Shown here in pieces: positions 12,161 to 64,000 of a stretch of 64,000 nucleotides of DNA. Position 1 is the first letter of the stretch; each line of letters begins with the position of its first letter. Under the pieces are notes generated by a model. That model ran no database searches and was not told where the DNA came from. It saw only the letters and a list, made by a program, of their open reading frames with translations. The stretch is from Psammoneis japonica (lineage: Eukaryota): contig QPGO01000114.1 of NCBI GenBank assembly GCA_008632985.1, forward strand, positions 124,001-188,000, read 5' to 3'. A program made the position numbers and the translations under genes.

Positions 12161-12170
12161 CTAAGACATT

Positions 12171-16419: not shown

Positions 16420-16530
16420 TTGAGGAAGCCAATGCTCCACAAGCACCAGGTGGATGCTGTTTTTGCTGGACACGTTCACAGCATGGAATTGACCACGCAG
16501 TCTTGCACAACCAATCCGATTGCAGCGCTG
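16420..16530 (+). pseudogene. Purple acid phosphatase / metallophosphoesterase C-terminal fragment
   Basis: PMLHKHQVDAVFAGHVHS corresponds to EPxLYKYxVDxVFAGHVHxYER. Confidence 0.6.
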
Positions 16531-22633: not shown

Positions 22634-22809
22634 TGCAGGGCCTGCTGCAGCAACTGCTGGCTAGCTGGCTGGCAGAGTCGATCCCAAAATGAGACCCGGC
22701 ACAAATTAACTTTTTCCGCACCCACGCGGTTTCGCGCGATTGCCGCATTTAAACAAAATTTTCAGTTGTGAAGATTGCCAACACAAATGACAAAACTTTT
22801 CCACTCAAA

Positions 22810-32691: not shown

Positions 32692-33085
32692 GATGTGTCC
32701 CAGGCACAGGTGGGAATCGTCCGTGTGACATTTGGCCCACAGAATTCTGCATGTGAGGAGCTCCACAGCAAAATCACCAGGCAATGAACATGTCATTGAT
32801 TGCCAACAGAAAAAGAGGCAATTTTGCAGATGCAGCACAAACTCATCCATGATTGAAGCACATCATTTCTCACTTGGCTGGGTGCATTCTTCAGGGATTG
32901 AAGAGCACACCTGGCCCCACAAATCTGTCAAATAAAAAGTCTGGGGTTTCATAAAACAGCAAGTCTGGGGCAACTCTGTGGGAGAGCACATGCAGAAATG
33001 TGTGCGCAAAACATGTGATGGATGACAAAAAATGACCATGTCACATGTCAGTGCTGTGAGCTCCCACCTGGGGCTGGAACGAGCC
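32692..33085. mobile_element. MITE copy 3, older, same subfamily as 36662-37061 and inverted relative to it
   Basis: Degenerate TIRs gatgtgtcccaggcacaggtggga / tcccacctggggctggaacgagcc and the shared subterminal gtgacatttggcccacagaattctgc. Confidence 0.8.
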
Positions 33086-34517
33086 ACACACCCAAGTGTC
33101 TCAAACGAGTCTTTGGGGCAGCAAACAAGAAGCCTGAGAGCACAAGGCTTTTGCAGAATGAGAAGAGGGCGCCAGAAATGTGACAAGATTTGCAGGTGAA
33201 AAAGGATTGTCTTTTGTCCAATGATGACACCAGCTTTCATTCATCAGCAGTGATGTGGCCTGCATGATGAGGGCCATGTCAATCGGCAGCAGAGTGGTGG
33301 CAGCAAGTGCCATCATCTCATGCTTGATGTGCATGAGGTCAATCAATTGACAGCTCATGCAAAGAAGTGTTTTGGAACATTGATGGGGTGAGAGGCAGCT
33401 TTTGTGGGACAGACAGACAGTGTTGCAGTGAAAGATGTGCCAACAACTGCTGCGCGTGCTGCTGCTGCGGCGCTTTTGGGCTTGCAACTCAGGTTGTTGA
33501 GCAGGCTTTGTGCCCACCTTTTAGCTTCTGCACCTGGCTGATGCAGCAATTGTGGCCAACATCAATGGGAGTGTGTTTGTGGGCTGTGAAGCCAGCTTGG
33601 GTTGGCGAGACTGAATGTGTGCTGGCTGGCAAGCCGCAAAGCGTTCTTGTCTGCAGGCTGTTTTTAATTTTAGATGGTGAAGGGTTGGGAGCAGTGTTGG
33701 GGAATGAAGCCACCACATTTGCACCGGCAAGGCAGTTGGCAGCTCTGGGGTGGCCAAAAGAAATGCACAAAATCACCAAGCTTAAAGAGCACCAAAGAGA
33801 GAGGGCAGGTCACACTGCTGGCCTGTTCCAGCTCCAGGTGCTCCACTTTTCATCACGCTAGATTTTCTGTGCAGTTTTCAGTGCCAGACATTTTTGTCTC
33901 CACCTGGCAGAGCTTGCACTTTTTGGCTTCATGCAAACATTGATTGTTTTGATGACATGACACATTTGTGACATTGATGATCATGTGCAACAACTGAGGT
34001 GCACAATGCGTCACAGGAAGAATCGTGTCAGTTGGCATTTAAAATTTCTGGTGATGCACAGAACAACACTGACTTCTACGAACACGTGCCGTCCACCCAG
34101 GCCAGCGAACACACACCAGTCACAACGCAGCACACCGCTGTCACCACTCCACAACCCCCTCTTCACCCTTGCGGTTGTTTGCAACCATCTGTTCCTTTCA
34201 TTTCAAAGTCACATCGTTGTTGTCGCAATGCGATTGCGGCTCTAAAGAGTTGCTGTCATTGCAGAGAACACCATCTCTTCGCATTCTCTTGTTTCGAATT
34301 CGGCAAGTTGCTTCATCGTGTTTTTTTTTACGCGTCACCGTGTGCGTGTGTTTTTCTGGTTGTTTCTCACGTCTTGTTTTATGGTTGTTTTGCACCAGGG
34401 CCATCGGAATTTCCACAAAACTGAAGCATTCGCCCAGTCGTTCTCCGAGTGACATTTTGCACTGGAGCCAACTTGTCTTGGTTTGTTTTCACTGTGACGC
34501 TCACTGTTTGTGCTCTC

Positions 34518-34757
34518 CAGCATCTGGAGCTGCCTTGGAGGCTGCCTCTGTTCATCCGTGTCACTTTCGCGGCAACTGACGTTGGCCCCCTCTCTGGAGT
34601 GCATTTGTCGCACAAGCGGGAGCGCAGCTTGCTGTTTGACACTTTTCAGCATCTGGAACTGCCTTAGAGGCTGCCTCTGTTCATCCGTGTCACTTTTGCG
34701 GCAACTGACGTTGGCCCCCTCTCTGGAGTGCATTTGTCATGCAAACAGGAGTGCAGG
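34518..34757 (+). repeat. Tandem repeat with 129-bp period in the left arm of the transposon
   Basis: cagcatctgg...ctctctggagtgcatttgtc at 34518 and 34647. Confidence 0.9.
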
Positions 34758-37700: not shown

Positions 37701-38770
37701 GCCAGCATCCTGGAGATTCCGAAGGAGCTGTTCCTCACTTGTTTGGTTGCTTTGAAGGGAAAAACAAGGGCGTCATTTTGTGGGAACCATGGTTTGATGT
37801 GCGACACAATGAAATGAACGGCCACCCCATGAACACGTGTGCGGCCCTCATCTCACGCACCAAACACAAACCAAACATTCCCCAGCAACTCAATCGAAAA
37901 TGCAGGGACGAAATTAAGAACAAGGTGGAATCGATTTGCAACCCACCACAGATTGCCAAACTGAAGAGATTGGCTGAAGCGGAGATTCAAAAACTTCCAC
38001 CTGTTGGTCGGGGAGCTGATTTCATTGGCTGCAGCTCAGAGGGGAACCGTCCCATGTGTGCAACCCTGGATTGGGCTGAGTGCAATTTCAAGTTTCGGTT
38101 TCCAGATGTGTGGAAAGATTTGAAACAGTTGAAGCCATCGGATGGTCATTGCTCCTTGCCGGAAGGAAATGTGTTGATGCCATCGAACAGAAACTTGCCG
38201 ACGAGCGGTCCACCTGTGAAATTCCTGCAAGGACAAAATGACACTTGCGTTTTTTCCTCCCTGGCCAGTGTTCTTGATTGTGTTGGCAATGTGGAAATGA
38301 GAGACTGCATTGCTTCTCACATTCAAACATCCACCAACTGTGCTGACACCAACAACAAGTGCATGTTGTTTGCAAAGAACATGTTGAACGGTCGTTTGAA
38401 GGGAAAATTCCCGCCCACAAACTCAAACATGAAGTTTTGCGGCAGTGTGGATCGATCGATTTCCCTGGCAGCAGGTGATGAATTTGATGTGACAACCTGC
38501 AATTGTGACTTCACAACTTTGTGCCGTCTTTTGAACAACCACTGCATTGCCTTGCACCATGGATGGATCTTTGATTCCAACCACCCTTTTGCATTGCCAG
38601 CAAACGACACCAAGTGCTTGAATTGGTGTCTTGGGAACAAGGAACATGAGGTGAAATGTGTGGCAAAAAAGCGTCTGCAACAAGTGTTCATGGTGCACCA
38701 GTTCGAACTTCCCAGGGCGGCGCAGCAGCAGCTGTGTGCAAAAAGGAAAGCTTTTGTGTTGGATGGTTAA
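34728..38770 (+). pseudogene. Transposon cargo ORF (about 1200 aa reconstructed): possible GNAT-like region, acidic linker, papain-like peptidase domain
   Basis: Removing the MITE and one TSD joins HHHLH to HASACHARLKEE in frame; one in-frame TGA at 37613-37615; C-terminal Q-x4-T-C-VFSSLAS ... H-CIALHHGWIF-D-SN. Confidence 0.7.
36662..37061. mobile_element. 400-bp MITE copy 4, TSD ATCA, retains many TpA
   Basis: gacgcgctccagctctaggtggga ... tcccacctgggattggaacccgtc with ATCA on both sides. Confidence 0.95.
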
Positions 38771-38828
38771 TCCAGCTGCACAATTTAAAATGACAATCAC
38801 AGTGTTTGTTCATTTTCCCATTTGCACT

Positions 38829-41800
38829 TCATTTGTCCGACTCATCACCGTCACTGCCCCCTGCCACGCTCTCATCATCCTCCACAGTGCGTTCCATGCC
38901 GTCATTCTCTCCCTCACACTCACCAGCTTTGATGTTTTGTTCCTCCACCTCGTCCAAACAGTCCTCAAAATGGTCCATTGCCTCCCGCTGTCGGGCGGCA
39001 TCCAGAATTCCTTCATGCTCGTCATCGCTCAAATGACGTGGATGAAGAAGTGAAGCCTCATTCCTGTTGCATGTGCTTGGCAGTTCCCGATTGGCCGATG
39101 GTTCATCAAGCTCAATGTTGGCAATTGCAGCTTGCTTCAGCAACACTCTTGTCTTGCATTCCTCAGCATCACCGGGAGTGTGCCATCCTCTGGCCCGTGG
39201 AACAGGGTCAAGATGCATTCCCTTGCAAACCCATTCACCGGCCTTGACAGTTGTGGGTGGGTCAAACTTTTCCCACACCTCATCCTCCTGTGCTTTGTGG
39301 GGGAGTTCATCCCATTGCAGCAGACAAAAGCCCTCCTCAGATTCACAAGACAATGTGGCATGGCTGTTTAGAACAATTTCCTTGGCCATTTCCTCAGTCA
39401 GGAAGTCCAACACAGATTTGTGAACCAACTGCACCTCGTCAGCATCACTCTTGTCTGTTTGGATCACCTGACACACTTGCCAATCATTCAGTCCCTCAAA
39501 GACAGGCCACAATTTGCAAGCTCGGTTGCCACCTGCATGTCGTGGCTGCTCTGTTGGCTCGACATTTTCAACCCAAGGGCGTTTGAGCTGATCCAGGCAG
39601 GCTTCACAAGCACAAGGAATTCTTCGCATGGCAACCCAACCAGTGGGGAAAAGAGGTTCAAATCGGAAATGGCACAAGGCTCCAATGCCACAATGGCATG
39701 TGCACACTTGCACCAATCCAATCAACTTGACTTCAATTAAAGAGCCAATGACTTCATCAGCTTCTTGCAGACAATGCACCCTTTGCACTGACTTTTGAAG
39801 GGATTCCCTCTTGGCATGTTTTCTGTCACCAGCTGCGCCCAAAGCATTCTTTTCCTTTGTGACTGTTTTGCAACATTCCTTGGCATGACTGTGTGCAGCT
39901 GCAACACACTTGTCATCCATGACCAAAGCTTCAGGTCTAATTTTTCCATCCTTGTCATTGACTCCTGCGACAATTGTGGACTGCATTTCTCGATGCACGA
40001 GTGATTTGATGCAGGCTCCAATGCCATCAACCTCTCCTTTGCCATGTCCAGGTGCTCCAATGGCACGGTCAAACACAATGTTGCATTTGTGCGCAAATGC
40101 AGACAACAAGCACAGTGCCAAAGCACATCGGCACTGTTTGGCACAACCATCAGTGTGATCCCAAATCACAAGCCACGCCTTGCACAGGTTGCGGTTTTTT
40201 AACCAGATGACAAACTTTTCCAAGTGAGTGTGGGTGGTGGTGGGATCTTGCTTGGAAGAGTCAGAGAGACGCGCATGATGTGTTTTCTCAAGCACATTGT
40301 CAACCATTGCATTGCAAACTCTTCCTTCAATTGACAATGTTCGGTTGTTGCCACAATGGTCACCCTGAACTTGCTTGTTGAACTTTGCCTTCTGATGCTC
40401 GGAGAAGTCATGAGACGTGAACAGGCTGTTGGGCATTGACTCAAATGCTTTGCGACGCATTTCCATGCAATGATTTTTCCCAAGAATGACCACATGGGGA
40501 AGGTGGCAGCGCAGCTTCTCTAAACTTGGAATGCAGTGCTCTTTTACAAAGACACCGACTGGTTTGCGGAACCTTGTCAACAAGGTCCTTCATTTCACCT
40601 TTGCATCCTTGTTCCCATCTGGATCTGCCTCACAAACAGGACATGCTTCCATGTGCACACCATGCTTGGAACAACTTTTTACAGTCAAGTGACGTTGAAA
40701 CAAAACTTGGGGTGCACCAGGACTTTCATTCTGCTCCAACAACGGAGTTGGACAGGATGGGCAATGCTCACATTCACCCAAAACGCATTTCCAATGAGGA
40801 TGATCCTGACCATTGACGCTGCCCCAAATGATGGTTGCAACTGCATCTCGGGCTTTAGGATGAAGGTGATGGCCGTTGGGGCCAAACGCCTCATCTTGAC
40901 AGACACACATTGTTTCCTCCAATTTGCCAAGGGCACTGTCACAGTTCTCCGAGTTCTCAGGATCCTCACTTGCAAGCTTCAACCGACTTTGCTCCACCTC
41001 CATCTCTTTCAAAAGCTTCCTTCGAAACGTGTTCAATGCATCTTGCAGAAAATTGGCGTTGGTGCAATCGCTGCATTGACACATGCTGCGTTGACTTGCG
41101 CTCATTTTTCGACACTGCTTGGGAATCAAAAACCAAAACATCGTGTGGCTGATGAGGGTCTTGCCATTGGCATCACGTGCATGTTTGAATCCACCAACAG
41201 AAACAGGCTTCAACATGTTGTTGTGAAGCTCACGCATGGACACATTGCGCAACCATTTGTTCACTCGTTTCTTGTTTCCATCTTCATCTTCAATGAGAGT
41301 CATGTCTCGTGTGTTGGGAGACTGCACTGTGTTGGGATGATTTGACAACCAGTGCACAAATGCCTTGCGGATCTCAGGGGAAACTTTGTGAGGACGCCGA
41401 CGGGGTTGCACAGAAGACCACATGACATCGTGAGTGTTTGAAATCAAGGCCTCTCTGATTTCCTTCCCCTTCTTCATTTGGCGATGAACAGTGCTTCGAT
41501 TCAGGCCAAGTGCCTTGGCATGGTCATGGGAAGACAACATTTTCTCATCAGCAGATTTTTCTGGTGAACCGGAGATTCCAGTTGCCAGAGCATGGACAAA
41601 TGATTTTTTGTTGTCAGCGAGGTGTTGACCATTGCTGGTGTCGTTGGCACGTGCCCACATTTTGCCCAGCTGCTGGGTGATTTGCAAGGCCGCAGAATTT
41701 GTGCTTGGCAACGTCAAATTGCAAGCCTGAACAAATGGGGACAACTCGGGAAAATGCAAAGTGTGCACAAAGGCACAGATTTGTTGTTCTTGAGTGGCGG

Positions 41801-42360
41801 CGCAAGACAGCACTTCTTCTCTTGCTTTGACCGCTGCACGACAAAGTGCCTGTTGGGGATCTTTGTGAGTTGCTTTAAATGCATGAGGATTGAAAGTGGG
41901 GCAACCTTTGGAGGTGGCAAGGTTGACATCAGCTCGGTTGGCTGAAGCGACAGAGGGAGCAAGGGCGGCATTGTCAGAGGTGAGGTTGGAGGGAACGGCG
42001 GCAGCTCCTGCAGCGTGCATTTGGGAGGGGCCTGGTGGTCTTGGCAAGGACAACCCTGGACAATGAGTGGGGTGCTCTGTGGAGGTGTTCAGGTTGAAAG
42101 CAGCCAGGTTGGTGGGAGCAACGGAGGGAGTGACGGCGGCAATGTCAGCGTTGGGGTTGGAGGGAGTGGAGGCCACTCCTGCAGCGTGCATTTGGGAGTG
42201 GCTTGGCGGTCTTGGCAAGGACGACCCTGGACAATGAGCGAGGTGTTCTGTGCAGGGGTTCGGGTTGAAAGCAGCCTGGTTGGCGGGAGAAACGGAGGAA
42301 GTGACAGAGACAGCAGAGTTTGGGTTGTTCGGGTTGGAGGGAGTGGCTGCAGCTCCTTCA
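38829..42360 (-). pseudogene. Transposase (over 1100 aa) with one in-frame TGA at 40590-40592 and 171-bp repeats in its N-terminal part
   Basis: HDFSE, WDHTDGCAKQCRC (DGCxxQYR) and GAPGHGKGEVDGIG motifs plus Cys-rich segments; the 542-aa and 584-aa ORFs are in the same frame. Confidence 0.8.
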
Positions 42361-43764
42361 ACTCAGCCTCAGCAACGACATGGTCGGAGACCGTGTCGTG
42401 TTTTTCAAGTTCGCGAGGCTTTTGTTTTTGCTGTTGCCAGTCCCTGACTTGTGTCAACGGCCAACTCCATTTTGCTTCTTCCTCTTGTTGCCCATGATGC
42501 ACTGGAAATTTGATTAAAAGTGTGCATCAAGAGGGCTGCTGGTGGATGAGACGGGCGGCAAGTCGAGAGGACACATTTTTTTGGCGCGCTCAATCACATT
42601 GGCTGTTCTGTGTCTGCATGAATGAGGCATGTTCGGACGTCAGTTGAGTTGAAGAAGACCAAACACACGAGCTCCGAAAAATGAAAAAGTGAACAATCAC
42701 CAGCATTTTTCACGTGGAATGGGGCACCAGCCAAAAATCACATTTGGCACAAACAAGTCCTTCATTTTTGATCATTTCGAAAATCGAAAGGTGAGTGTGC
42801 ACCCGAAAACACATGTAAAGTGCACACTCACCCTTCAATTTGGCAAAAAACGGATTTTGAAAAAGTTAATTGCGCCAAACCTAAAAATGGGCTGATGGTG
42901 GGAATCGAACCCACTCGGAGCACCTGGAGCTGGAACAGGCCTGCTCTGACGAGCACCATGTCGAAAGGACTTGCTGGTGATCATCTGGTCTGCAACTTGT
43001 GGAAAGGGATGACACAATCATGTGAAGCAGAAAGTGAACACATTGCAACAAGCATTTCAAGCGCCGCACATTCCTTGACGGAACGGGGATGCATTCCGTG
43101 CGCGAAGTGGCTGCTCTAGAGCTGCCAAGTACGAAGTGGTAGCAGCACTGTAGTTACTTGTGGGATACAGATGAAGCGTCATTTTTCGATTTGTCCAATG
43201 ACAAGCATTAAAATATCATCATTGGTTTATTATTCTATTTAATTTTTGCAGCGGCAATGACTTGTGGGATTTTGTTTGTTAAATCAAAGGTCATTCCAGC
43301 GCTGAATATGATATTATTTGTGTCTGAATACATCTATTGTAGGGCATAAACAATTAGAAGGGCTTATCTTCCTCACGTTTTGATCAGCGATTTGATGACC
43401 AAAATGCAGTCGAAACACTAGCCCCATGCTGTTGAGTGTCTTTGTGAGCACCACGGCAATGTCCACAAGAGTGCCTGTTGACCAACACTCTTTCAACAGG
43501 TTTGAGCAAGCACACGTTGTTTGATGAGTTCCGTCCTGTTCTAGTGAGGAACACAGAGCAATCGCCACGAAAGCTATACCTGTCGGAAGCTCTGTCGGCT
43601 TCGTCTTGGAGCTTCAAACTGTTCACAGCCTCCGGTAAGAGTGAATTAACCTGTTTTCTTCTATGTACGCTTTTCATGATGAGGACTTGGGCTGTATTGC
43701 TTGTTCAATTTGCTTCTTTGACGTATCTAACAAACTATTGTTGCCTCGATCGCGTTGCAGAATA

Positions 43765-44899: not shown

Positions 44900-47800
44900 T
44901 CGAGACTTGTCCGCCCCACTGCGAGTTGTCAACACTGGCCAAACAATCAATTTCACCCGTCCCCTGCGAATTTCTCTAATTCTTAGAAATTGGGCGCTCA
45001 CAATCAGAGATTTTCTAATCCACACCACAAAATTAAAATGACAACCCCCCTTCTTCCCCCCTGGGAAAATGTCTCCGGAGTTCAGAGAGGTTGGAGTGGC
45101 CGCTGCTTTGCTCTTGCAGTCAGAGGGGCTGGCCCAGCGCTCTGCAAAGTTGGCTGTGTTTCCTCCTGAGAAATGTTTTTTTCTCATTGACAGAGCTTCA
45201 AAAACAAGAAGCTGTGCGCTGGAATTTTTTTGCGTGTGTGCAAGTTCCCTGCGCTGCGCTGCACTTGGCCCACATCTTCGACAACTGTGGCTGCTGCAGG
45301 CTGCCCTGGTGGGCTGCTCAGTTGCTTTTCTCATTTGAGCGCCATTTCCAGGGAGTGCACAATCTGAGCAAGATTGTCTGGTGCTGTCACCCACATGACA
45401 CACACTGTTGATCTCATCTTTTGCTGCTGGTGCCAGTGTGCTGGCGTGTGATGTGTGGCCCAGCTGCTCCGCGCCACGTGTTTGGGCTGTTGGAAATGGC
45501 ACAGAGAGGCACGTGAGAATTTGTTGTGCAAAATTGCTCTGCAAAAAGAAGAGCAAGCTTCTTCTCAGGGGCTTCACTCTCCTCTTTTTCCATTGCTTGT
45601 GTTTGCCCAGTTTTCTCAAAGAGGTGGGTGCCGTGATTTTTTGCTTTTCAAAATCCAGAATCTTTCTGCTCCACACACAGCAAACACACTGCTGGGCTTC
45701 ACAAAAGGTGTGGTCATCCCCATGTCAGCTCACACACCAGCCTGTGTCACCATGCACCAAACCTGCAGGGCAGGTGGGCAGGCATTCAGAGTTTGTGGTC
45801 GATCGAAGAATGAGCTGATGCGGCGGATCGAGCCATTGACAGATTGTTGGCAACGTTTTTGGTGTTCATGTGTCATGTCACCCCCACTCCAGTTGATGTC
45901 CAGCCCACATTGTTTCCCCTCTTGGCGCACTCCTGTGCTTCATGTTCTTGGCCTTTTTTGCAAGCTTCTCATCCTTCTTGACAGCACCATGCTCACACAC
46001 GCAACTCATCTTCTTGGAGTTTTTTGCATCATGCTTGAGGAGTTGCTGGCCTGGCTTGAATGTGCACAGCCTGATGTCATTGACTTTGAACACCATGGCT
46101 TGTTTGCCCATCTTTTTGTCTGGCAGACAGAGCTCATTCACTGCTCTGTTGTTGTGCATGATGCAGCACTTGCCCTTCCAGGCTGCAGTCTCTCACAAGG
46201 CTCTTCTTGAGGCCCTTGCAAAAATGGTCATCACTGTTCTCTGCAAACAGGCATGCAGCCCATGTCTCAAATGCAGTGTCCTTTGGTGTGGTTTGCTCCA
46301 CTGGGAAAATGCAGTGCTTGTGTGCCTTGGTGTTCTTGATGGGTCCATCCAGCATCTTGACACCAAGACCATTGCTTGCAGCATCTTGTTGATTCTTAAA
46401 TCTTGATGGGCAGCCCTTCAGCAACTTGTCCTCTTGTTGTTTCACTTCCCAAGCATGTGCTTCAGGGATTTGGCAAGTGTGTGGAATGGACATGGACCTC
46501 TCATGGAGTCAAGCTCAGTGACTGGATCAGCTTCAACAGTTTGATTGGTTGATCAGGTCATCTCTGATGTTGTCACAACTGGGGTTGGTGAGCACTCTCT
46601 GACTCATCAGTGTGGGATTGCTGCGCAAGTGCAGTGGCCTTGTTCTCCTCAAGCAAATTTCATTTTCTCATCACAGTCATGTGATTTGACAACCTTGCAC
46701 TCCTCATGCTTGCAGCTGCTTCTCTTCTTGTTGCAACTTCTGGGAAAATTTCTCCTGACAACCACAATTGTTTGGGGCTGACCCTGGGGCCACAACTGTT
46801 GTTGGTGCCCCCAATGCAAAAGGTTCCCTCGCTGGAGAAATCCTTGGTGCAGGCCATGTCTTCCAGAGACCTTGTCAGATGTGTGCAACCTGATCATGCT
46901 CTTTCTGTGTGTGGGTGATGATCTTCTTCTTGATGTCCTTGCATGCTCCTGTTCATCAATGATGGGTGAAACTTCCACTCTGGCCCAAAGTTCCTCTTTG
47001 GGTTGGTCTTCTTGCCCTTGTCACAGGAATGCTTGTGGCCTCTGCCACCCCTGCCTGGGTCATGTCCTTGGCCTTCAGAGTGCTCACATTCTGCCTCCTC
47101 CCCTGCCACTCATGATGCAGGCTTCCTGCATTGGAAATTTTGCATGGAGGTTGCGGCAGCACTGCATGCACCAAATGCAGTGCTTGCAACTCTTTGGAAA
47201 AGTGAGTGTTGAGTCAACAAGTCAATGTTGTCAAAAGGGAATCCTCTGGGGTTTCCTGTGCCACTTGTTGCACTTGCCCTGGTTGCCATGGCAACTGTGG
47301 TTTGCCTGGAAGTCTCCAACAAACTTTGGCCTTGCAATGTGACAGGTGCCTGCTGACATCACAGTGTGGCTTGTGTGGGCCAGATGGCTCACACTCCAAA
47401 GAGTGAGATCAAAAGAAGAGTGCAGGTTGGCAAGATTGGTGACAAGCACACATTCATTTGTTGGTGCTGCCGAACCCACCACAAGGCACGATTGCCTTCA
47501 ATCTGACCATGCAGCTTTCCAATGATCATGATTTCTGCCCTTGCTTCAACCTTCACACAGCATGTGGGCCGGGATCTTTGCATGGTGAGTTGGCTTTGCA
47601 TGAGGCAGTTTGTGGCATGACTGTTTGGTCAGTCAGCAAGTTCTTTTTGGACAATGATGACAAAGAGCATGTCTGCAAATGGGGCGAGTGTGGCTGCCAT
47701 CCAATCCACACAGCTTTTTTTGCTTTGCGTGGTGGAGCCCACTGCTGCCAGAGCAAAGCTTGTGAGATTTGTTGTCAAACAGAGCTGATGCTTCTTGCAT

Positions 47801-49660
47801 TGATGCCAACAACAGCGCTCCTTTTTGTTGGGCTTTGCAGGGCTGGTGGTGGCAAAGATGGGGTGCATGTGCTTTCAATGAAGAACTGCCCTCTTGGCAT
47901 GCTCTCCATTGGCAAAAACCTTGTTGTTGCACTGAGTCATTTAGGCATGTGTTGCATCTCTCAAAGGGGTTGTGCAATGCCAAGGTGGTGGCAGCAATGA
48001 GAATGTTAGAGGGCACTTGCTTTTTGTGCTTGTCTGGTGACTTTGAAGCCGTCAAGAAGAGGAAAAGAAAGACAAAGTGCACAGCACAAGCTTGTCAGGT
48101 TTCAGGGCTAAAAGAAGACATTTTGTGCTGCTGTTTCTTTCTTCCAATGAAGTTGAAGCTGTGTGTCAACCACAAATGTCATTTTTTGTGTGTGTTGTTG
48201 CAGCATGTCTGAGAGTGAGTTGCTTCATTCCTCACCAGGTGGCGCTCAAGCCGATCCCCTCATCATGGCGTGGCGGAAGAGAAGACTGCCCCCCCCTCCC
48301 CCACCCACCCTGCCCTGTGCATGTGACAGGCAACAAAAAGCAGATGTGTTTCAGTTGTGTCGTTGTGGAAATCATGAGCTAGTTTAGATGCAGAGAAATG
48401 GGATCGTGCGCTCACACTTTTGCCTTCTTTTTGAAGCAAAGGTTTCCAGAACAAGCAAGGATGATGTGCCTCTTCATGTGGCCACATGCGCTGGCGGCAA
48501 GGGCATCATGGCAGCTGCCATCTTGTTGAAAAATGGTGCTCACTCTGTGGCACTCAACAAGCAGCTCAGATGGCCCCTGGATGTTGCAGCCAACAAATTC
48601 TCTGAAGAGTTGAAAGTGGGCTTGTCTCCAAGTGGTTTGAGCTGTGACCTGAAATTGACTCGCTGGATGTTGCAACCTGTGGATTTTCTGAACAGTTGAA
48701 AGTGAGTTGTCTCCAAGTGGCTCCAGTGGTGACCTGAAAGAAGATTAAAAAAATGCAAACAAAAAAAGCAGCAGATGGCCAAAATTGAGGAAACCTGCAA
48801 CACACTCACACCAGCTGTCAGGTCTCCTCAGACTCTCTCACAAAAGCTCGGACACTCATGCTTCACCATCCGGAGTGTCTGGAGCCTGCAAACACTCTGA
48901 AGTCTGAACATTTTTGGCAAGCTCCTGATTGCATCAAGTCCATCATGAGCCTCTGGATCATTGTGGCAGCAGTGGCATTCTTGGCAGCAATGCACTTTCA
49001 AGAGTTTGGAGGATGCTCTGGATCTTGGTGGCGGCAACAATCAACATGCAGCATCGTTGCTTCTTGCTGTGCTTGAAGGATGCCTGGATTTTAGAAGCTG
49101 CAGCATTCTTGGCACTTGGCAACAAAGTTTTGAAACACCCTCTGCCTGGATTGTTGTTGCAGCAGCAGTCATGTTCTTGGCAAAAGCGTGCTTGACCAAG
49201 CTTCGAAAAGCATGCTTGGTCATCTTGATGGCACTGATCTTTTTGTGCACCACATTGAAGGCTGGAGGAATGGAGTGGACATGCCACAGCACTGACTCCA
49301 TTGACAAGTTGGGAATCTCCATGATGTTCACACGGACATTGTGGGTTACATTCACTCTGCAGCTTGTGCTGACAAAGCCTTTGGATCCATGTTGGCTGAG
49401 TTTGCGTGGGAAAACAAGGTGGCCATTTCAACCCTAATTCCCAAATTGTTGGATTTTCTCAGTCACTTTGTCAAGTCATCAACATGTGTTGCTTTACTCT
49501 GCACAACAACACAATGGAAATGGGAATCTTCCTTGCCTCAGCAGAGGGCAAGACAGTGCTTGTTCTCAATGTGTGCTTGCCAATTGCCCCCCAATTTGCT
49601 GTTGGATGTGGTGCAGAACACTTTTTATGAGCGTTGAAGTGGCGGAGGGGGGCACACACC
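44900..49660. other. TpA- and CpG-depleted domain 3 of heavily decayed sequence
   Basis: Very TG/CA-rich; faint remnants resembling copia gag (~46180-46265), an ankyrin repeat (~48440-48600) and IQ-like motifs (~48950-49170). Confidence 0.85.
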
Positions 49661-51602: not shown

Positions 51603-53473
51603 TTAAACGGCCGCCCAGAGCTCCTCACGGAAGTCTGTCAGAATCTCGGCACATTCAAGGTCTCGACTTACACGCTGATAGACGACACTAATAGAAGCAA
51701 GATCCACACCACCAAGCACAATGTCGCGAGAAGAGTCGTGTAGTTGAGATGGATGCAACTGCTTTATACTCAGAAGGTCCATTACACCAAGCGTCTCTTC
51801 CGTCATCTCGCGTTGAGCTTCCATAATAATGTCAGCGTCGTATATTTTGTCATGGTCTTTGGTTCCATGAGACGGAATGGTTCTCAAGGCAAGACATTGT
51901 TCGTAGAAGGCAGAACTGTCAACAGCATTGCGCCACGTCGATTTGCCGGGCTCCGCCGTTGTACCACAACGACAGAGCTGAAACTGAAACAACCCACCCT
52001 TCTTCTTGCTCGGTACAAAAGGCTCAATAAAATAAAGACCGTCATACCGGTAAATCTCTTGTGTCTTTTTTGGCCAAGAGTCACTGCTAGCTCGAAAGGA
52101 GCTTTGGTACTTCTTGGAACGGAAAACTCGAATAGGTAATTGCTTCTGATAGCTAAGGACCAATGCGTTGGCTCCAACTCGTGTTTCTGCGGCATACATG
52201 ATTTTGGAGAATCGATCGTCTCCTTTCCTTTTCCCACTAACAATAATTGCGTCACAACCCTGTTTAGAGTTGCCACTAATGCCGCTTTGGTAACTATAAT
52301 GCCCGCGTTTCTGCACTAGCTCTGATCTAGGGTACACATGCCCTTCACATATGCCATCGACAGAGCCGAATGTTGGACCTGAGCAGGGCTTTGGTGCCTC
52401 CAAACATGGGCGTGGAGAACCTGAATCCTTGTCGAATTCTTTGTACTTGCCATCCCTAAAGATGATGGCAAGTCTACGATTGGCAGCCACAACACCTTCC
52501 TTTTTCTTCTCCGAAATACGAGGCACTCCGTGAGTCCAAAAGAATTGCATTTCGCCTGGCACGTTTCAAATTCGAGAAGAAATTCTGGTGAGTTATAATG
52601 TCAAGGAAGCAAAGAGCTCACTAAGGGTAGATCAATACTCAATACGCACCGTCCATCATATAGGAATCACCAGGTTGCAGGATGAGTTCGATTTTCTGAT
52701 CCCCACTTTGGAGCGACTTGTTGGCAACTTTGGGCTTGATTAGGACTTTACGAGGCTCATCAGTAGGAGCATCCACCACAAGCGCCACAATTTTCGTCTC
52801 CCCTTGATCGTCGTCTGTAAATTTCGATGTAAATGATCGTAAGGTCTCACGTATACATCAACAACGAAGTATTCATACACACATCACATTTTCTCGCTTT
52901 CTCACCTGCATGCTGCCCCATTTTATCATGTCCGCCCCTGTACAAAACCGCAGTGACACCGATGTTCCACCTTGACACTTCCGCAATCTCAGCCATGCGT
53001 TTCGACAGCCCCTCTAACTTGCTTGCCATGGAAAGTGGACGAGCCTTTGCTGTTATACTACGGTTGTTGTATCGATACCCAGGTTGTTTCTGATCAAAGT
53101 CGAGCGTCGCGCTTTCGTGAAACTGGCAGTGGACTCGCGGTTCATGACTGAATCCTTGGCTGCGGTATAAACGGAAAATGTTGACTCCGAGTCGTTCGCT
53201 CAGCAGTTCCTCGGTAACTTCTTGCGCTTCTTTCTTCGAAATAACCTGTGGTATAATGGAGACACACCCACCTGGTGAGAGTGCAATGTCGACGCGGTTG
53301 CCATCGTCACGTGCGAGAACTTTTTCGGCTTCCCATGTGCGTCCATTGTAAGTTTTAACTGTGGCAAGCACGCGACCATCACCTGCTGCATCAAGCGGCA
53401 GGTCAGCGACTGTGCCGTTGACGGTGAGTGCTTTTCGTTGCAACCTTGCGCTTTGTGGTATCTCAAGATTCAT
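51603..53473 (-). CDS. AlkB-family 2OG-Fe(II) dioxygenase fused to an SRA/YDG domain; exons 53473-52906, 52814-52650, 52555-51603 (561 aa)
   Basis: Spliced product has VLYRGGHDKMGQHAD (HxD), LQPGDSYMMDGEMQFFWTHGVP (distal His) and RRLAIIFR, then FGSVDGICEG..RSEL...GISG..GCDAIIVSG...PIRVFRS...YRYDGLY. Two GT-AG introns splice in frame. Confidence 0.88.
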
Positions 53474-54049: not shown

Positions 54050-55850
54050 TAGATTCTGCAGGCGTCCACAGCTGTTTTGTGCTTTTTACATCACAGGTCA
54101 TTTTCGAAAGATTCCTGTTGACATGCACCTCAATTGTTCAGTCTGCACAAGGCAAAGCAAGTGCACGCGAGCGAAATAAATCAAGAAATGATGTCAATTT
54201 GTCACATTTTAGAATGGGGCATTGGAGCAAGTTTGTGGCTTGACCTCTGAGAAGATTTTTTTAGAAAGAAAAGGATCTGGGGCAGTGTCCGCTGCAAGCT
54301 TTGTTGTGAAGAAGTCATCCTCTGTGTCTTTTTGACAAACATTTGACATTGGGAAAAGAGCTGGCCCTTTGCCTGTTGGGGGTTCCATTGGAGATGATGA
54401 CACACGATGTGTCCTTTCGCTGTGGAGAGCTGGGGTTTCAAGCCCCCCCCCCCTTGGTGTGGCGGTGCGAAGTGGCTGGGGGCAACCAACAATCACATCA
54501 GAGTGGCCTTGCAGCTCTCAACCACAGCTCTCAACCGCAGTTCTCAAAGCCTGTTGGGGTCCACCAAAAAGATCTCCAGCATGCTCCAGCTGCAGTTGTT
54601 GGGGTGGCTGGCACAATCAAGCCATGTGAGACAATGGCTGCTGCAGCCATGACTCCTGTCTCTGTCCACTCTCATCAACGCAGACATTCTCTGCCACAAA
54701 TGGCAGCTCTCCTCTCTGTGGCAGCAAACAATGGAAACCAACCATTCTGTGGCAGTCAGCGTCTGGAGCAAATGTGCGCAACTTTGTTGGTCATTTGGGC
54801 TTGATGGTTTCACGCATTTGATGGTCAGATTGGTGCGCGGGGACAACTCCGCAGAAGAGGCACCATGTGGGGACAACTCTGGAAAAGTGAGAAAAAAAAT
54901 GGCATGGTGAACAACTCTTGGCTGCAAAGCAAAGCCACAGCAATTCTTGCAGTGTGCTTTTTTGCTCACCTTTCTCTGCTCCAAATGATTGTCACAAAAG
55001 CTGTGCACTGGTGCTCCCAAAAAACTCAATGTGACCCACAACAAACAACCCCAATCCACACCCTTCTTTGTGAACCTCTGCGTTGTCATTCAAGCATGAC
55101 ACAACCTTGATCTTTCTTGCACTCTGTCAAATTTGCTCTTTGGGGTGTGTGGAAGAGAATGCCAGGGTCAATCATCAAAGCAAAACCCAAAACCCATTTT
55201 TAAGGTGCTGCCACACTTCTGCCCTGCAACTCTGGCAAACACCCCAAGCACACTTAAAGTGTGGCAGGAAAAAGCCAATCATGAACAACAGAAACTGAGC
55301 CCAAATGTGAGAGCACTCGCCTGCATCGGGGTGGGAACAGCGCAAGAACCCCCCAACAAGTGACACATCTTTGTTCAAGCACCATGACGCACCCTTGACA
55401 TTTCCTTGGCTCTGTCTGATTTGCGCTCCAGGGTGTGCAGAAGAGAGCATCAGAGCTTGCAATGTGTGACAGCAGGTGCCCAGCAACACACCAGACAAAG
55501 CAAAATCACAAAACACCACATGATTTGCTCTAAAGAATGAGAGAGAAGCTAAAAGGGGAAAGAGATCAGCTGCAATGAAAAATCTCAGTCACAAAGACAA
55601 GTCGCCAAAGCTGCCATTTCAACAGAGCCACAGCATGTTCTCTTTGACACACCCTGGTTTCTCAAATTTTCTGTGATCTGGGTGCAGTTGCAACACCATC
55701 CTGAAGAGGCAAGTGTCAGTGCCCTTGCTTTTTTGCATCATCTGGAGTTCTTCTCACGTGATTTGATGTCTTTTTCCACCACTCCTTGTGCCCCCTGTGT
55801 GCAAGCATTGTGCCCTGGCAGTGTCGCAAGACTTGGGCACACTGAATTAA
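54050..55850. other. TpA- and CpG-depleted domain 4
   Basis: TA nearly absent; no recognisable protein. Confidence 0.8.
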
Positions 55851-56459
55851 TCTCACGTATTGGGCGGCGCCCCTGACCCCACTTTCACCCCAGATTGTCA
55901 AAATGTGTAAAACACCCCTGTTTTGTAAAACGCCCTAGTAACAAGCAGCGGCTTGGGTCGTCATGGTGCTTTCGACAGTCGAGTCGAGCAGTTTTTGCTG
56001 TTTGCGCATTCAAATCGCGCGCAGTGACAGTGAATCTTCACTTCCGGGTTCCTTCTGGTTTTGTTTCGACATCAAACATGACTGACGACTGACCGACGAA
56101 TGCTCGAAAAAGCCTGCTACGTAGGATCCTACGTAAGATATAGGGTAATGAGCCAAAATGTGTGTTTTACACGACGAAGCACGTGTTTTACAGAATAACA
56201 CGTGGTTTTACGATTCCCCCCCTCCCCCCCCTTTCACCGCGATGGTTGCGCCCAATACGTGTCAGCGCGCCCCTTGCCAGAGCAGGGGCTGTTTCTCTGC
56301 TTGTTTTCCACATTCCACAAGTGTTCTCGAAATGACTGAGTTGAGCTTGTTCGTTCTTGAACGAAATTTCCACAGATTTGCTTTTGACACAATCGAGAAT
56401 CTTGAGCTTGGCATCAGCCTTGTATGTGGAGGTTCCCAAGATTTGCTTTGCTCTGCCAG

Positions 56460-57300
56460 AGTGGTCGTGATTGAGATTCCCTTGAGTTGGATACGCGATA
56501 TTCGAAAACTGACACCCACCAACGTGCTTGCTACTATATTGATTGCGATTGGTCTATTTTCTGTTCTGTGCATGGCCTTTGTCTATGGTTCGGAAAGTGA
56601 AGTTTACGGTGAGGGACCTCGGTTTCTGTCAAATTTGGAGAAGTTGCCGGCTGTGACCGATGCTTGGTTCATCTTTATTGGAACAAGCTTCTTTATGATG
56701 GAGGGCGCCATTACCTTGCTCGTTCCACTTCAGGAAGCCGTCTTTCTTGAAGAGGACAAGAAGAAATTCCCCAAAGTGAATCAAATTGTCACGTGGTGGA
56801 TCGTGGCTTTCTACATTTTGTTCTCCATAATATGCTGTGCTGCATTTGGCGATGGGATCCAGACAGCTCTCACGGCATCCTTGAAAGGGTCCTTGGCGAC
56901 GTTTGTTCAATTTGCATATTCGATTGCTGTAATTTTCACTTTCCCGTTGCAGGCGTTTCGAGCAATGGAGGTTGCCTCCAATGCAATCCTAGGCAAGACG
57001 GGAGGTCGAGGCGACGGGGATAAAGTCGCCTTCCAGAGGAATATTCTCGCCACGACGGTCACTTGTTTGTTAGGGGTCATTGCCATATTCGCCATCGATT
57101 ATCTGGGAAATGTTGTCAGCATCCTTGGGTCACTTTTCGGTATTCCTCTGGCGCTGGTGTTTCCGCCGTTGATGCATAATAAATTCGTCAAGGACTCTTC
57201 TAGAAACGAAAGGCGACGAACAACTGCGTTGTCGCAGTCGGCTTTCTTGCCATGGGCAGCGGCGTCTTTTGCAACCATCGCATATGGGACAAGGGAGCAT
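56460..57300 (+). pseudogene. Proton-coupled amino-acid transporter (SLC36-like), C-terminal half only, apparent frameshift near the 3' end
   Basis: EIPLSWIRDIRKLTPTNVLA, FIGTSFFMMEGAITLLVPLQEA, YSIAVIFTFPLQ, VVSILGSLFGIPLALVFPPLMH; N-terminal helices not found. Confidence 0.7.
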
Positions 57301-57879
57301 AAGGCGGAAGAACGGTATCCAATCTTTTCAGCGGTACGCGCAACAGGTGAAAAGCTGACGGATTCTATCAAACAACCCATTTTTTGTTATTGTGATGCCG
57401 CAGCCGTTTGGATGTAGAATCTCGAAGCATGCCTCATGGTAGAACGTTCTTTGTTGTTGAACCCAAGCTCGATTCAATACGGAGCCTCTCCTTGTACCCC
57501 TGAAGAATCTATTGCGATACGAAGATAACTCACTCACAACTACGTTACTCTGGCTTCAATTTGCTTTTGCTCATGCTCAATGGACTCCACATTCACGGTG
57601 CGCCGACAACTATCACTTCATGAAATCTCAAAGTCTGTTTTGATAGGCAGTGCATTCCATAGCAAGTGCTTGACGAGGCCAGTTAGTTGGGCGCTGCAAT
57701 GGATAATTGTCCAACTAATTGACACCCATGAAACAGCTGTGTCGCCCTTTCTGCATTAGCTGCATCGGCAAAGGTAGAATGAACCTGAGCCTGAGGATAG
57801 GTTCCACTTTTCCAGGGCACTCTTTGCTTTCCTCTTGCACCTCCACATTCGGTTCCTCGTCAATGAGAGAAAAGAGCTA

Positions 57880-59567: not shown

Positions 59568-60547
59568 CCTTGTGGACCATGTGGTGCCGAAGTAGAGAGT
59601 GGACGACAGCGATCGCTTTCGTCAATTTTTATGTACAGGTTACAATGTTCTCTTTGATCTTTTTGTGATGCGTCGAAGAATCACTCTCTGGTGTTAGTTG
59701 TCAATCAATCACCAATTAGAATACTGTACACGCCTTTTGCTCGACGCGCGTCACGGTTCAGGGTGTACACAAATTTTGTACCACAGTGGCGTAAGTGATT
59801 TTTATCTGACATTCTACATGCGCCTAGTGGCGTAGGCCCAGTACAAAAGCAATAAATTTTTGAAGTTTTGTGACGTAGGTACGGTACGGTACAAAGTCAG
59901 AGCATGTTGTGGCGTACCGGGTAGATTCGACATCAACAAGGCTTCGCGCAACACTCGCAACAACCAAGACAACAGAAAACCGCTCGCAAAATCTCGCTCC
60001 CAATTTACACGTTGCAGCTGATGTGGTGTTGTTCATTCGTCTCACTCGTTTTCATCGTGGAACCTCCTGGTGACACAGGGTGTCTTTCAGGCATGTGCAT
60101 CGGTCTGATTGCCCCCCCCCCCCCTCTTTGGGCAAGAATGGGGTGTGTGGTTTGCTTCTTGAAGACACCAGACCAGCTGCAAGGAGCTTGCAGTGGAGAG
60201 CTGGCAAGCAAAGCACTGGGCTGCACCACAAGGCACTGGCTGATGGGACAGCATTGGGCAAGCACAACCACAAGCATTTTCCTGAGGGCACTCTTGCACT
60301 GTGCTCGAAGAACGAGTGCAAACGAAAGTGGAACAGTGTGCGAAAAGTGGAAATTATGAGATTGAATTTTGCTCTGTGATTTTTGGTTTCTCCGAACGAG
60401 TTCTCAATGGCCCAAAGCTTCTGCACTGCTTCTACAGACAAAAGGCCTTTCGGAGAATGTGTTCGTGACAACAGATTGTCTGGACGCGATTGCCATTGAC
60501 ACGCAAGATGTCAACATCGTCAATCGATCGTATTTGCAATTCTCGAC

Positions 60548-60821
60548 TGACAGAAATTGAAGGCAAATGGCAAGAATTCAAACAATGACTCCTTGCTGCT
60601 GTCTAAATGGCAGATGAGTCTCCGCTCAGAGACCGTTGCAGGAGCCGAGAGACGTGCAAGTCGGCACAATCGGGCCACTGTTGTCATTCTTGTGAGCCTT
60701 GTGGCTCGAAAGCAAACCACATCGCGCGTGAACGCGCGGAACTAAAGCACACAAAACTGTGCACGGCAAACTAAACAGCGCGTGATGCTTCGCGCACCCA
60801 AATCCTGTTCAAATCCTGTCA
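60548..60821 (-). mobile_element. Probable 3' LTR (274 bp) of the copia element
   Basis: On the minus strand a purine-rich tract aactggggag is followed by TGACAGGATT; the matching inverted terminus tgacagaaatt is at 60548. Confidence 0.65.
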
Positions 60822-63800
60822 CTCCCCAGTTTGCTTGAGGAGCCACAGAAACAGATTCGACTTCGGATGGAATGAAGTTCCAGAACATGAGGGGGCGGAG
60901 AAGGTCCCAGATTTGGGAGCAACCCCAATGCTTTCTGAGAATGTCAGCAGGGTTGCGGGAGCCTTCGATGAAGTGGAGCTCAAGGTGGCCAGAGGCAATT
61001 GCCTCACACACGCGGTGGAACGACAGTGCGGTGTGTCGCTTGTGTAACTTGGAGTGCGGGATGGTGGCACTGTCTACAACCGACTTGTTGTCACCGAACA
61101 TGCAACCAACGTTGCGGATCGGGACGCCAAGGTGGCGCAGGGTGATGCGCAGGTTGACAATCTGCTCAACACAAGTCCTTGCGGCAACAAATTCAGACCC
61201 GCAGGTCGCAGTCTCCACGGTGGCTTGTTTCTTAGAGAACCAATCAGCCGGGAATTTGTTGAGGAAGTGGAGCATTCCCATGACAGAGCGTCCGGTGAGC
61301 ATGCAATGGCACAAGTTTGCATCGACGCAGTGGGTGGTGGTGACGAACTTGCCAAGGGGCGGTGGAGCGTCCTTCGGGATCATCTCTTCTGCTTCGCCAT
61401 GCACGGAATGCATCCATTCATGGGCCGGAGCAGGGAGATCCGAACAGTCGGGCTCTTCCGTGCGAACGCGGAGAGCACCGTGTCGCATCTTGGAGAGGCA
61501 CCCACAGACGCGTTTGGCACGGTCCAAGTGGCCTTGACGGGGCGCAGCTCGGAAGCTAGAGAGTGACATGACGGCCGTGGTGATGTCAATTCGACCAAGG
61601 GACACTGCCCATTGGAGTGAACCAACAAGAGACTGAAACTTGTGAATGCCATCGGGTCCCAGCAGTTCGGAAGTGTCCAGTTCGGGGTGGTCACCCTTCT
61701 CCAGAGGTGACAGGGCGTTGGTGGTGGGTTTCTCCCCAAACAGTCGGGCGCAGCTGTCGACCATGCGCTCGATGTACTTGCGCGGAGACAGGCACAAGGT
61801 TCCGTCGGGGTCCCGGGAAAAGTCGCAACCCAGATGGAACTCAATGGGTCCCGCACCCTTGAGCTTGAACTTGCACTTTTCCGTGAGAGTGTCGACGAAA
61901 GATTGAGGGTCCTTCATGGCAATGGCGAGGTCATCCACATGAACGGCAATGCATTCACAGTGGTCGCCGTTCCTGCGCATCCAAATGTCGGGTTCGGCGC
62001 GGCAGGGGAAGAAGCCTTCAGCTTGCAGGCAGTCGGCGAAGCGCTCGTGCCAGCGGAGACCGGAGCTGCGCAGTCCACACAATGCCTTGTGGATGACAAG
62101 GATGTGTCCTTCGAGTTTGCCGAACTCGGGTCCAGCTACAATGTAAAGCTTCTCCTTGGTGGTGGCTTCAAGGCAGGCATTGCCAATGTCGGTGGCCCAT
62201 GTCTCCAACTCGTTGAGTTCGGCCAGGAAAATCATCAGCCGAAGGCCACGGAGGGAGACTGCTCCGGAGCAGACACTGTCGACAGGTGCATCCGTGAGGT
62301 GCCCGTCGGCTGCGAGTCGTGCCTTGTGGCGACCGTCGTGTTTCACGTCGCACACTGGGTGCACTCGGATCTTCTTGTGTCCCGCAGGAGGAGTGGAAGA
62401 CTTGAAGGGCCCGCAGTCATGGAAGACTTCGTATTCGTCGAGTTGGTCCATCTCGAGATCAGTTGCGTCTCCCCACTTGCGATTGCCGTTGCATTCGTCC
62501 AGTGACATGGCGTGTTTGCAGTTTCGAGGAACTTCGCATCCATGCTTGCAGTGAGGTGCAGTGCGGAAGGAGCGAAGCTTGGCTTGGTTGGCCATGCGAA
62601 GTGGCTTCTTTTGGCGCCTCGCGATGGTGCGGAACTGCTTCCAGCCATCCGTGTCGAGGAGTCCGTTCTCTCGTGCATAGATGGCACAGGTGACAGGGTC
62701 GTCCTTGGCGATGATGGCAAGAGGCTCGGACGTGATCTCCCCACTTTCCCATTCAAGCATGATGTTGTAGCTGGAGCCTTTCCAGGTTGGGTCGTGAGGC
62801 TTCAGAGGTCCTTCGTGCGACACGATGCGTCGAAATTTCCAAACAGTGGCATCTTCGTCTTCTTGCTCAATGTGATTCATGATGTCATTGCAGGCAAGGA
62901 CTTCCTCGCATTCGTCATTGTTGACAGAGCAGACGAACTCAGTGAGCTCGGGATTGCCGTTGACTTTCCATTCGTGGTCTTCGACGGCCTTGACGATGCG
63001 AGCTCTGTGGCGTTGTCCGTCCTCTTGTGGCTGCATGAGGAAGGCACGTCCAATGATGTCTTGCGGATCGAAAACTGGCATCTTGGGTGTCCTGATCTCC
63101 CCATCAGGAGAGTCGACGGGGTTGTCGTCATGGCGAGATTTGATGATGGGTTCAGGTGGCTCCCCATCAGGAGGATCAAGACGCAGGTTTCGAACGGCAG
63201 GATCGGGGGTGGCGGAGCGGACGTTGGACCGGCAGAGGATCTTCTGAGTCTCGTCAGATAGAATCTTGAAGGTCATCTGGTGGCCGACATGCTCAGCAAT
63301 GCCAACGAAGCGTCCACGCAACTCACGGGATTCAGACGGCCAATCGGAGTCATCGAGGTGGAAGCACATGGGTTCCCACCAATGAAAGCAAAGCAACGGG
63401 CTGATGTCCGGGGTGGAGCCAGTGAGAGTCTCGAGGGGCGTGCGCCAGTGGAGACGTGGGGACGCTGTGTGGTTGAGCATGAAGCACACGCACATGAGCG
63501 CCAGCAGCCATGCATGGGCGGGCGAACCAAAACGATCCATGACAGTGTTCGCCATGCGCTTCACGGTCTGGTGTCGACGTTCGGCAAAGTTTTGGTGTTG
63601 CTGGTGAGGCTCACTTTGCCAGCTAGAGATGAAGAGGGCGCGCAGGATCCCGAGCACTTTGTTGCTGATCTCAACTTGAGCACGGTTGCCAATGAGTTTG
63701 GATGGGGCACCACGTTCACGGATCTGATCCTCGAGTGTGTTGACAAACTCTTTGTCTGTCTCAGTGCCGCAGACGTCAGTGACGGCAGACTCGGTGCCAA

Positions 63801-64000
63801 CAAACAGTTGGGCGCTGGTGCAACCAGAGTCGACGGCCGGGGTGTCGGCACAAACGGTGTCAGTGGCGACAGGCTCGTTGCGGCGGTGCACATTGAGGGC
63901 GGGGTTGGGTGATTTGTGGGCCTTGCGAAGGTGTGCACCGGCGGGCATGCGGGCGCACTGCGTGGTGCAGTCAAAAGTACGACGGACCGCATCGGCAGGT
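60742..64000 (-). mobile_element. Ty1/copia (CoDi-type) pol: integrase-RT-RNase H, open for over 1000 codons, continues beyond the window
   Basis: QSEPHQQHQNFAERR (integrase), DVKHDGRHKARL, DIGNACLEA, KALCGLRSSG, VHVDDL (RT), VDANL, ETATCGSEF, FGDNKSV, NPADIL (RNase H); integrase precedes RT. Confidence 0.95.

Follow-up and report, generated by a model that had tools for sequence, protein, structure and literature searches.

We analyzed a 64,000-nucleotide stretch of the diatom Psammoneis japonica (GenBank contig QPGO01000114.1; hereafter the window, whose numbering is used for all positions) and found that it carries, on the minus strand, a gene predicted to encode an AlkB-type Fe(II)/2-oxoglutarate (2OG) dioxygenase joined to an SRA domain. 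Judged from its sequence, this is almost certainly an intact fusion belonging to an ochrophyte family. Among the functions that we weighed, repair of N-methyl lesions, namely 3-methylcytosine (3mC) and 1-methyladenine (1mA), at cytosine-methylated DNA would be the most likely role, and we give it slightly less than an even chance. The architecture is already catalogued as the stramenopile AlkB+SAD fusion, and the gene is a new member of a known, uncharacterized family.

A three-exon gene model with an intact reading frame

The gene model consists of three exons separated by two short introns (Table 1). A scripted join of the exons yields a coding sequence (CDS) of 1686 nt, or 561 codons with a single terminal stop, and its start codon at 53473 is the first in-frame ATG past an upstream stop. 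Exon 1 encodes an N-terminal beta extension specific to the family, together with the first half of the AlkB domain, in which H188 lies; exon 2 encodes the central strands of the dioxygenase core; and exon 3 supplies the end of the AlkB domain (H253, R272 and R278), a conserved DSG linker, the SRA and a tail of helices. Reading through unspliced intron 1 leads to a stop after about 20 codons, and the HxD iron-binding motif arises only in the spliced product, indicating that splicing is required.

BLASTP searches with the spliced protein gave single collinear alignments across both exon junctions with more than 60 relatives that share its architecture and are mostly diatom proteins, the best match being Cylindrotheca closterium P0016 (45.5% over 393 aa, E 4e-102). 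Columns of the family alignment were called near-invariant if their conservation in its other 42 rows was at least 90% (n = 61). The exon translations cover 58 of these columns and match 55 of the 58; the last three near-invariant columns are the junction residues H, A and D, which are present in the spliced product. This collinearity with relatives and the retention of near-invariant residues indicate that the gene is intact and under the constraints of its family. The initial annotation had described three exons encoding a complete set of AlkB motifs and then an SRA domain; its coordinates proved exact, and all catalytic residues are present.

That splicing and expression of the model are predicted from homology is the one point in favor of the view that the model is wrong or the gene a decaying copy. 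We consider the chance of this negligible, however, since removal of two canonical introns leaves an open frame of 561 codons, the relatives are collinear through both junctions, 55 of the 58 covered near-invariant residues are retained, and the dinucleotide composition of the gene is normal, which sets it apart from the surrounding mutated copies. We also considered that a transposon or virus had carried the gene in, and rejected this in view of the normal composition and the absence of repeats.

The dioxygenase domain resembles ALKBH3 and ALKBH2

H188, D190 and H253 all sit at near-invariant columns of the family, and the HxD...H iron triad is thus complete. When the exon 1 fragment (aa 71-186) was compared with Pfam, it matched PF13532 (2OG-FeII_Oxy_2) at 24.8 bits (E 2.9e-5), under the 31.2-bit cut-off, because the domain is spread over three exons and the fragment was scored alone. 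PF13532 is carried by 62 of the 64 relatives to which the spliced protein aligns.

A search of PDB with a single relative (P0003) returned nothing at E<=0.01, and a profile search was used instead. Against all PDB sequences, the family profile matched ALKBH3 at E 1.4e-9, followed by ALKBH2 (0.026) and ALKBH7 (0.23), and up to E 10 it found no other AlkB type (no E. coli AlkB, ALKBH1, ALKBH5 or FTO). Predicted structure points to the same two enzymes. The AlphaFold model of relative P0014, which is about 40% identical, has a predicted local distance difference test (pLDDT) score of 89.2, a predicted template-modeling (pTM) score of 0.85 and a confident linker; its fold matches ALKBH3 (TM 0.77-0.81) and ALKBH2 (0.76-0.82) better than it does FTO or E. 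coli AlkB. Of the human enzymes, ALKBH3 is the one nearest to this dioxygenase, with ALKBH2 next. The pTM score and confident linker of the P0014 model also suggest that AlkB and SRA form a fixed two-domain unit. Membership in the TET/JBP group of dioxygenases was rejected, as no such matches appeared in the Pfam, PDB-profile or fold searches.

An SRA domain with a divergent pocket

The second domain was recognized on exon 3 by Pfam SAD_SRA (PF02182; E 1.7e-17, 64 bits vs a cut-off of 30.7). We modeled aa 286-561 of the protein itself, obtaining pLDDT >90 for the SRA domain (blocks of 90-97) and a poor model of the helical tail. Foldseek on this SRA model placed TagI first (E 1.9e-9, 28% identity), with further matches to SUVH5 (TMt 0.68-0.70) and to UHRF1 and UHRF2 (about 0.6). 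By sequence profile TagI was again clearly first (E 3e-18 or 1e-21), with SUVH5/6 and UHRF1 at about 1e-11 to 1e-12. The predicted fold and the motif thus identify the domain as an SRA. A search of a protein atlas returned only generic SRA clusters, with scores <0.9.

The pocket region departs from that of known 5-methylcytosine (5mC) readers. In UHRF1, the 5mC pocket is formed by two stacking tyrosines and an Asp. We take the tyrosine of the GGY motif to be one wall of this pocket, and the segment that follows to be the NKR finger of UHRF1. At the corresponding positions, the diatom protein keeps the Tyr of M-Y-A-A-E and an Asp, and its Arg aligns with the GGY Tyr. The loop after the conserved Tyr is shortened in all 42 family rows shown, and a long loop of the NKR-finger type is absent from them. 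The initial annotation had reasoned that SRA domains read methylated cytosine; the SRA fold holds, but 5mC reading cannot simply be transferred to this domain, given the Arg in place of Tyr and the missing finger loop.

Among solved structures, this eukaryotic SRA is thus closest, by sequence profile and by fold, to that of a bacterial modification-dependent restriction enzyme (TagI) and not to those of plant or animal readers. The domain may have come from bacteria.

The fusion belongs to a family with chromatin-reader additions

Exon 3, used as a query, retrieved three longer proteins that carry both Pfam domains. With one of these, P0003, as the query we found 64 relatives, 60 of which contain both PF13532 and PF02182, while two contain PF13532 only and two PF02182 only. 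The named members come from diatoms (Nitzschia, Cylindrotheca and a Bacillariaceae metagenome-assembled genome (MAG)) and from the pelagophyte Chrysophaeum taylorii. The domain order is AlkB then SRA, and similarity to other family members is collinear over the full length. When a 45-member profile was compared with 1.84 billion cluster representatives, 4845 matched at E<=1e-3, of which 430 passed E<=1e-30. Within the best 150 of these matches, 86 span the region from before HxD to past YDG in one stretch, 56 end before YDG and eight are without the front; many are fragments. A search for encoding loci with an 11-row alignment yielded two metagenome contigs of 2.4 and 2.9 kb, without flanks.

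We examined 18 long members for further domains. Both core Pfam domains are present at E<=1e-4 in 16 of them, and ten (P0044, P0203, P0005, P0056, P0062, P0202, P0215, P0217, P0199 and P0240) add histone-mark readers: an SGF29 Tudor domain in two, zf-CW in one, a PHD-like zinc finger in two and chromo/Tudor-knot/MSL3-like domains in five. As read from sequence, these additions give the family the architecture of a chromatin protein.

Proposed repair at methylated DNA and competing roles

We propose 3mC and 1mA as the substrates because the closest characterized relatives, ALKBH3 and ALKBH2, act on them. The ALKBH3/2-type center would oxidatively remove the N-methyl groups of these bases from DNA, and the SRA-like domain would hold the enzyme on modified, probably cytosine-methylated, chromatin, with the histone-mark readers of the larger paralogues assisting this anchoring. 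The job of the enzyme would be to clear 3mC and related alkyl lesions made by cytosine methyltransferases in the places where those enzymes work. A published parallel comes from E. coli, where the CpG methylase M.SssI causes more mutations when alkB is missing (from the available part of 10.64898/2026.01.24.701492). The blocks around the gene are CpG-depleted (observed/expected ratio (o/e) 0.07-0.46), which fits what is expected if the genome methylates the cytosines of its repeats. The initial annotation had suggested either the repair of methyltransferase-made 3mC or an activity tying methylated repeats to adenine chemistry; the former is the best-supported reading, and the latter, with its connection to TpA depletion, is without support.

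Several observations weigh against repair at methylated DNA. ALKBH3 favors single-stranded substrates and has RNA among its targets. The evidence for the AlkB fold is by proxy, from the 40%-identical relative P0014. In the SRA pocket, a family-conserved Arg stands where the canonical GGY Tyr aligns, in the alignments with both TagI and UHRF1, and TagI has 16 (7+9) more residues in the stretch that follows the conserved Tyr. A literature search for a characterized AlkB-SRA protein found no experimental study. In addition, Iyer et al. (PMC4738411), in the part of that paper available to us, write that AlkBH3/AlkBH5-clade fusions to PHD, AT-hook and SAD/SRA domains could "conceivably demethylate m6A in DNA."

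This last suggestion belongs to a wider proposal, that this family supplies the DNA demethylase so far missing from diatoms. It would be an eraser, not a repair enzyme, whose divergent SRA-like domain would recognize a modified base in repeat chromatin and whose AlkB domain would oxidatively remove the methyl mark of N6-methyladenine (6mA), or that of 5mC in place of TET. We hold the proposal to be doubtful, with a small but real chance of being right. An eraser of either base would mean that diatoms have a demethylation route built from AlkB, not TET. For 6mA, the AlkB domain would demethylate the base in DNA as an epigenetic eraser, and the divergent SRA would read 6mA or another non-5mC mark. 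Such an activity is what Iyer et al. argue for in the available text on AlkBH3/AlkBH5-clade fusions (PMC4738411), and both the non-canonical pocket region and the histone-reader fusions among the relatives speak for it. However, the closest characterized enzymes, ALKBH3 and ALKBH2, act on 1mA and 3mC, and the clades known to be active on 6mA (ALKBH1, ALKBH4, ALKBH5 and FTO) are not the best matches, leaving 6mA erasure an unlikely function.

An RNA enzyme is improbable, although ALKBH3, whose activity on RNA is established, is the nearest solved relative. Like ALKBH3, such an enzyme would have m1A and m3C of tRNA and mRNA as its substrates, with the SRA/PUA-like domain binding modified RNA; PUA-like folds do include RNA binders, as stated in the accessible portion of PMC4738411. 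The chromatin readers in ten of the 18 long relatives argue against this, as do the closest solved SRA matches (TagI, SUVH5/6 and UHRF1/2), all of which are DNA binders.

An AlkB-based 5mC oxidase, standing in for TET, appears highly improbable. The SRA would flip 5mC out and the dioxygenase would oxidize it at or beside that site, starting demethylation, an arrangement to which the apparently rigid fusion of an SRA fold to a dioxygenase lends itself. ALKBH2, ALKBH3 and AlkB reportedly oxidize 5mC weakly in vitro. Yet a base held in the SRA pocket cannot occupy the AlkB active site simultaneously, the active-site motifs are of the N-methyl repair enzyme type, and the pocket residues are non-canonical. 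The gene is of modest interest in itself, and it offers a clean target for a simple biochemical test.

Hypermutated surroundings and the gene

An island of normal composition, 4.6 kb long (49.5-54.1 kb), surrounds the gene. TpA o/e is 0.00-0.16 up to about 49.5 kb and again over about 54.25-55.75 kb, compared with 0.43-0.96 over 49.5-54.0 kb and 0.58 in the CDS. The description of the gene as lying between two hypermutated blocks is therefore borne out by the TpA ratios on both flanks. Such depletion is widespread: 35 of the 64 1-kb bins of the window have a TpA o/e <0.25, often 0.02-0.1, with CpA and TpG at 1.4-2.1. The depleted blocks occupy window positions 10000-24000, 29500-43000, 45000-49500, 54100-55900 and 60000-64000 (TpA o/e 0.02-0.2); several also show strong CpG loss (o/e 0.03-0.3), and TA-free runs reach 1637 bp.

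We compared the inverted copies of a 400-bp repeat (21520-21918 vs 10708-10310), which are 91.75% identical and differ at 31 positions, 30 of them transitions. Twenty of the 31 mismatches fall in ten dinucleotides where one copy has CA and the other TG, and seven more are CG in one copy against CA or TG. The CA/TG pairs point to an ancestral TA that may have been altered independently on either strand after duplication. The same TpA signature was described in 2026 in the integrated viral DNA of Bigelowiella natans (10.64898/2026.01.13.699255), where the authors, in the available text, favor an ADAT-type adenosine deaminase. Our literature search for TpA depletion in diatom transposons found no report of it.

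Host genes occupy the normal islands between blocks. These include an ABCG/PDR-type transporter (24286-28965, plus strand), an amino-acid transporter (56152-57417, plus), an alpha/beta hydrolase (8316-8987, minus) and an F-box protein (6105-7226, plus). The best named matches of the ABCG transporter are from Attheya sp. (69%), a record named "Helico..." (55%) and a Bacillariaceae MAG (55%), as fits diatom DNA that lacks a near relative among the database proteins. With 35 of the 64 bins depleted and four other host genes also between blocks, the position of the AlkB-SRA gene is uninformative. The initial annotation had itself allowed that the proximity may be coincidence.

We also considered that the enzyme could be part of, or an antagonist of, a repeat-directed TpA to TpG/CpA hypermutation that connects 5mC-marked repeats to adenine chemistry. 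Hypermutation is real in the window, and the adjoining blocks are CpG-depleted as well. The idea also draws on E. coli strain C2523, in which M.SssI raised AT-to-GC mutations only with alkB deleted (from the available part of 10.64898/2026.01.24.701492). In at least one system, then, there is an A:T-to-G:C process that is linked to methylation and suppressed by AlkB, which is there the guard, not the mutator. Against the idea, AlkB removes methyl groups; it performs no adenine deamination and makes no A to G change. The position of the gene is uninformative, and the family occurs in many diatoms and a pelagophyte. Among the 64 relatives there is no NCBI-named Bigelowiella protein, which is weak evidence from a word-based search, and for the Bigelowiella signature an ADAT-type deaminase is the enzyme favored in the available text of 10.64898/2026.01.13.699255. 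A part for the enzyme in hypermutation is hardly conceivable on this balance. The variant in which the fusion is a guard, restraining methylation-linked A:T-to-G:C mutagenesis and thereby tied to the TpA hypermutation, would have an equally minute chance. The AlkB-SRA gene is no credible lead to the enzyme behind the TpA-to-TpG/CpA hypermutation.

Loss of TA removes the TAA and TAG stops, and the depleted blocks accordingly show long open stretches in many reading frames, four of which (384-680 codons) have no Pfam match. At 60742-63999 (minus strand), an open frame of at least 1085 codons runs off the window end; it lies in a TpA-depleted block and matches the copia-type RVT_2 domain (E 2e-22). 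A region of normal composition contains a direct repeat of about 780 bp (1-777 vs 4288-5064, 98.3% identity).

Table 1. Positions of the AlkB-SRA gene, its parts and the adjoining blocks, in window numbering
Feature	Position	Strand	Description
AlkB-SRA fusion gene	53473..51603	minus	3 exons, 2 GT..AG introns, 561 aa
Exon 1	52906..53473	minus	aa 1-189 and first base of codon 190; ATG at 53473
Intron 1	52815..52905	minus	91 nt, GT..AG, phase 1, GTGAGA donor; relatives align ungapped across junction
Exon 2	52650..52814	minus	completes D190; aa 190-244 and first base of codon 245
Intron 2	52556..52649	minus	94 nt, GT..AG, phase 1
Exon 3	51603..52555	minus	aa 245-561 and TAA stop (51605-51603)
AlkB-type Fe(II)/2OG dioxygenase domain	52443..53263	minus	aa 71-282, split by both introns; ALKBH3/ALKBH2-like
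HxD iron motif H188-A-D190, then DDQ	52804..52912	minus	assembled over intron 1 (exon 1/2 junction)
Second iron-ligand His, H253 in T-H-G-V-P	52521..52535	minus	exon 3
2OG-binding Arg pair R272-x5-R278	52449..52475	minus	exon 3
SAD/SRA domain	51966..52370	minus	aa 307-441; YRYDGLY at aa 413-419 (52032-52052)
Divergent SRA pocket-loop segment	52185..52241	minus	S-G-K-R (aa 351-354) replaces G-G-Y; Tyr in M-Y-A-A-E (aa 364-368)
C-terminal tail	51606..51965	minus	aa 442-561; one conserved helix, then low-confidence helices without family match
TpA/CpG-depleted block	45000..49500	.	3' side of the gene; context, not part of the gene
TpA/CpG-depleted block	54100..55900	.	about 0.6 kb upstream of the ATG; context, not part of the gene

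Comparison with known systems

The closest precedent is the set of stramenopile AlkB+SAD fusions catalogued by Iyer, Zhang and Aravind in 2016 (Bioessays, PMC4738411) and placed by them, in the text available, in "a group related to AlkBH3." The domain order (sometimes with an added PHD), the stramenopile lineage and the AlkBH3-related clade are all the same as in the P. japonica gene and are reproduced by our searches. In its accessible portion the paper speaks of "two stramenopiles" and contains no experiments, whereas we find at least 86 full-span cluster representatives. It names only PHD there as the added domain; we also find SGF29-Tudor, zf-CW and chromo domains, as well as the divergence of the SRA pocket.

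Fungal SAD+AlkB fusions, from the portion of the supplement to Iyer et al. 2016 available to us, likewise combine an SAD/SRA-like domain and AlkB in one protein. Membership of the diatom gene in that group was rejected, as the fungal proteins have the opposite order, with SAD first, and are assigned in the same portion to a minor AlkB clade of their own, which has a zinc ribbon and arose by a fusion independent of the stramenopile one. The "ALKBH12" clan of Mielecki et al. 2012 (PMC3265494) comprises fungi and diatoms, according to the part of that paper available.

Human ALKBH3 and ALKBH2 have in common with the diatom protein the double-stranded beta-helix fold, the HxD...H triad and the R-x5-R 2OG site, at an identity of 14-21% in structural alignments of the P0014 model. 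The human enzymes are single-domain proteins, whereas the diatom protein adds the N-terminal beta extension, the conserved linker and the SRA. Its SRA in turn has the fold, the YDG motif, the G-I-S-G-x...D-A-I-x-x-S/N-G stretch and the conserved Tyr in common with those of TagI, SUVH5/6 and UHRF1/2. It differs in having Arg for the GGY Tyr and a post-Tyr region that is about 16 residues shorter than in TagI, a loss that takes away the part forming the NKR finger in UHRF1.

The nearest parallel to the proposed repair function is the association of DNA methyltransferases with ALKB2. DNMT1 and DNMT3 co-evolve with ALKB2 because methyltransferases generate 3mC as a by-product, according to the part of PMC9246332 available to us. 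The logic would be the same in the diatom, in that an ALKBH2/3-type enzyme is needed where 3mC-making methyltransferases act. The DNMT-ALKB2 link is one of co-occurring separate genes, whereas in the diatom case a reader is fused to a putative repair enzyme, and targeting would be physical. If repair at cytosine-methylated DNA is indeed its role, the family would represent a physical form of the DNMT-ALKB2 partnership that has so far rested on co-evolution, with lesion repair tethered by a modified-DNA reader at the sites where methyltransferases damage DNA.

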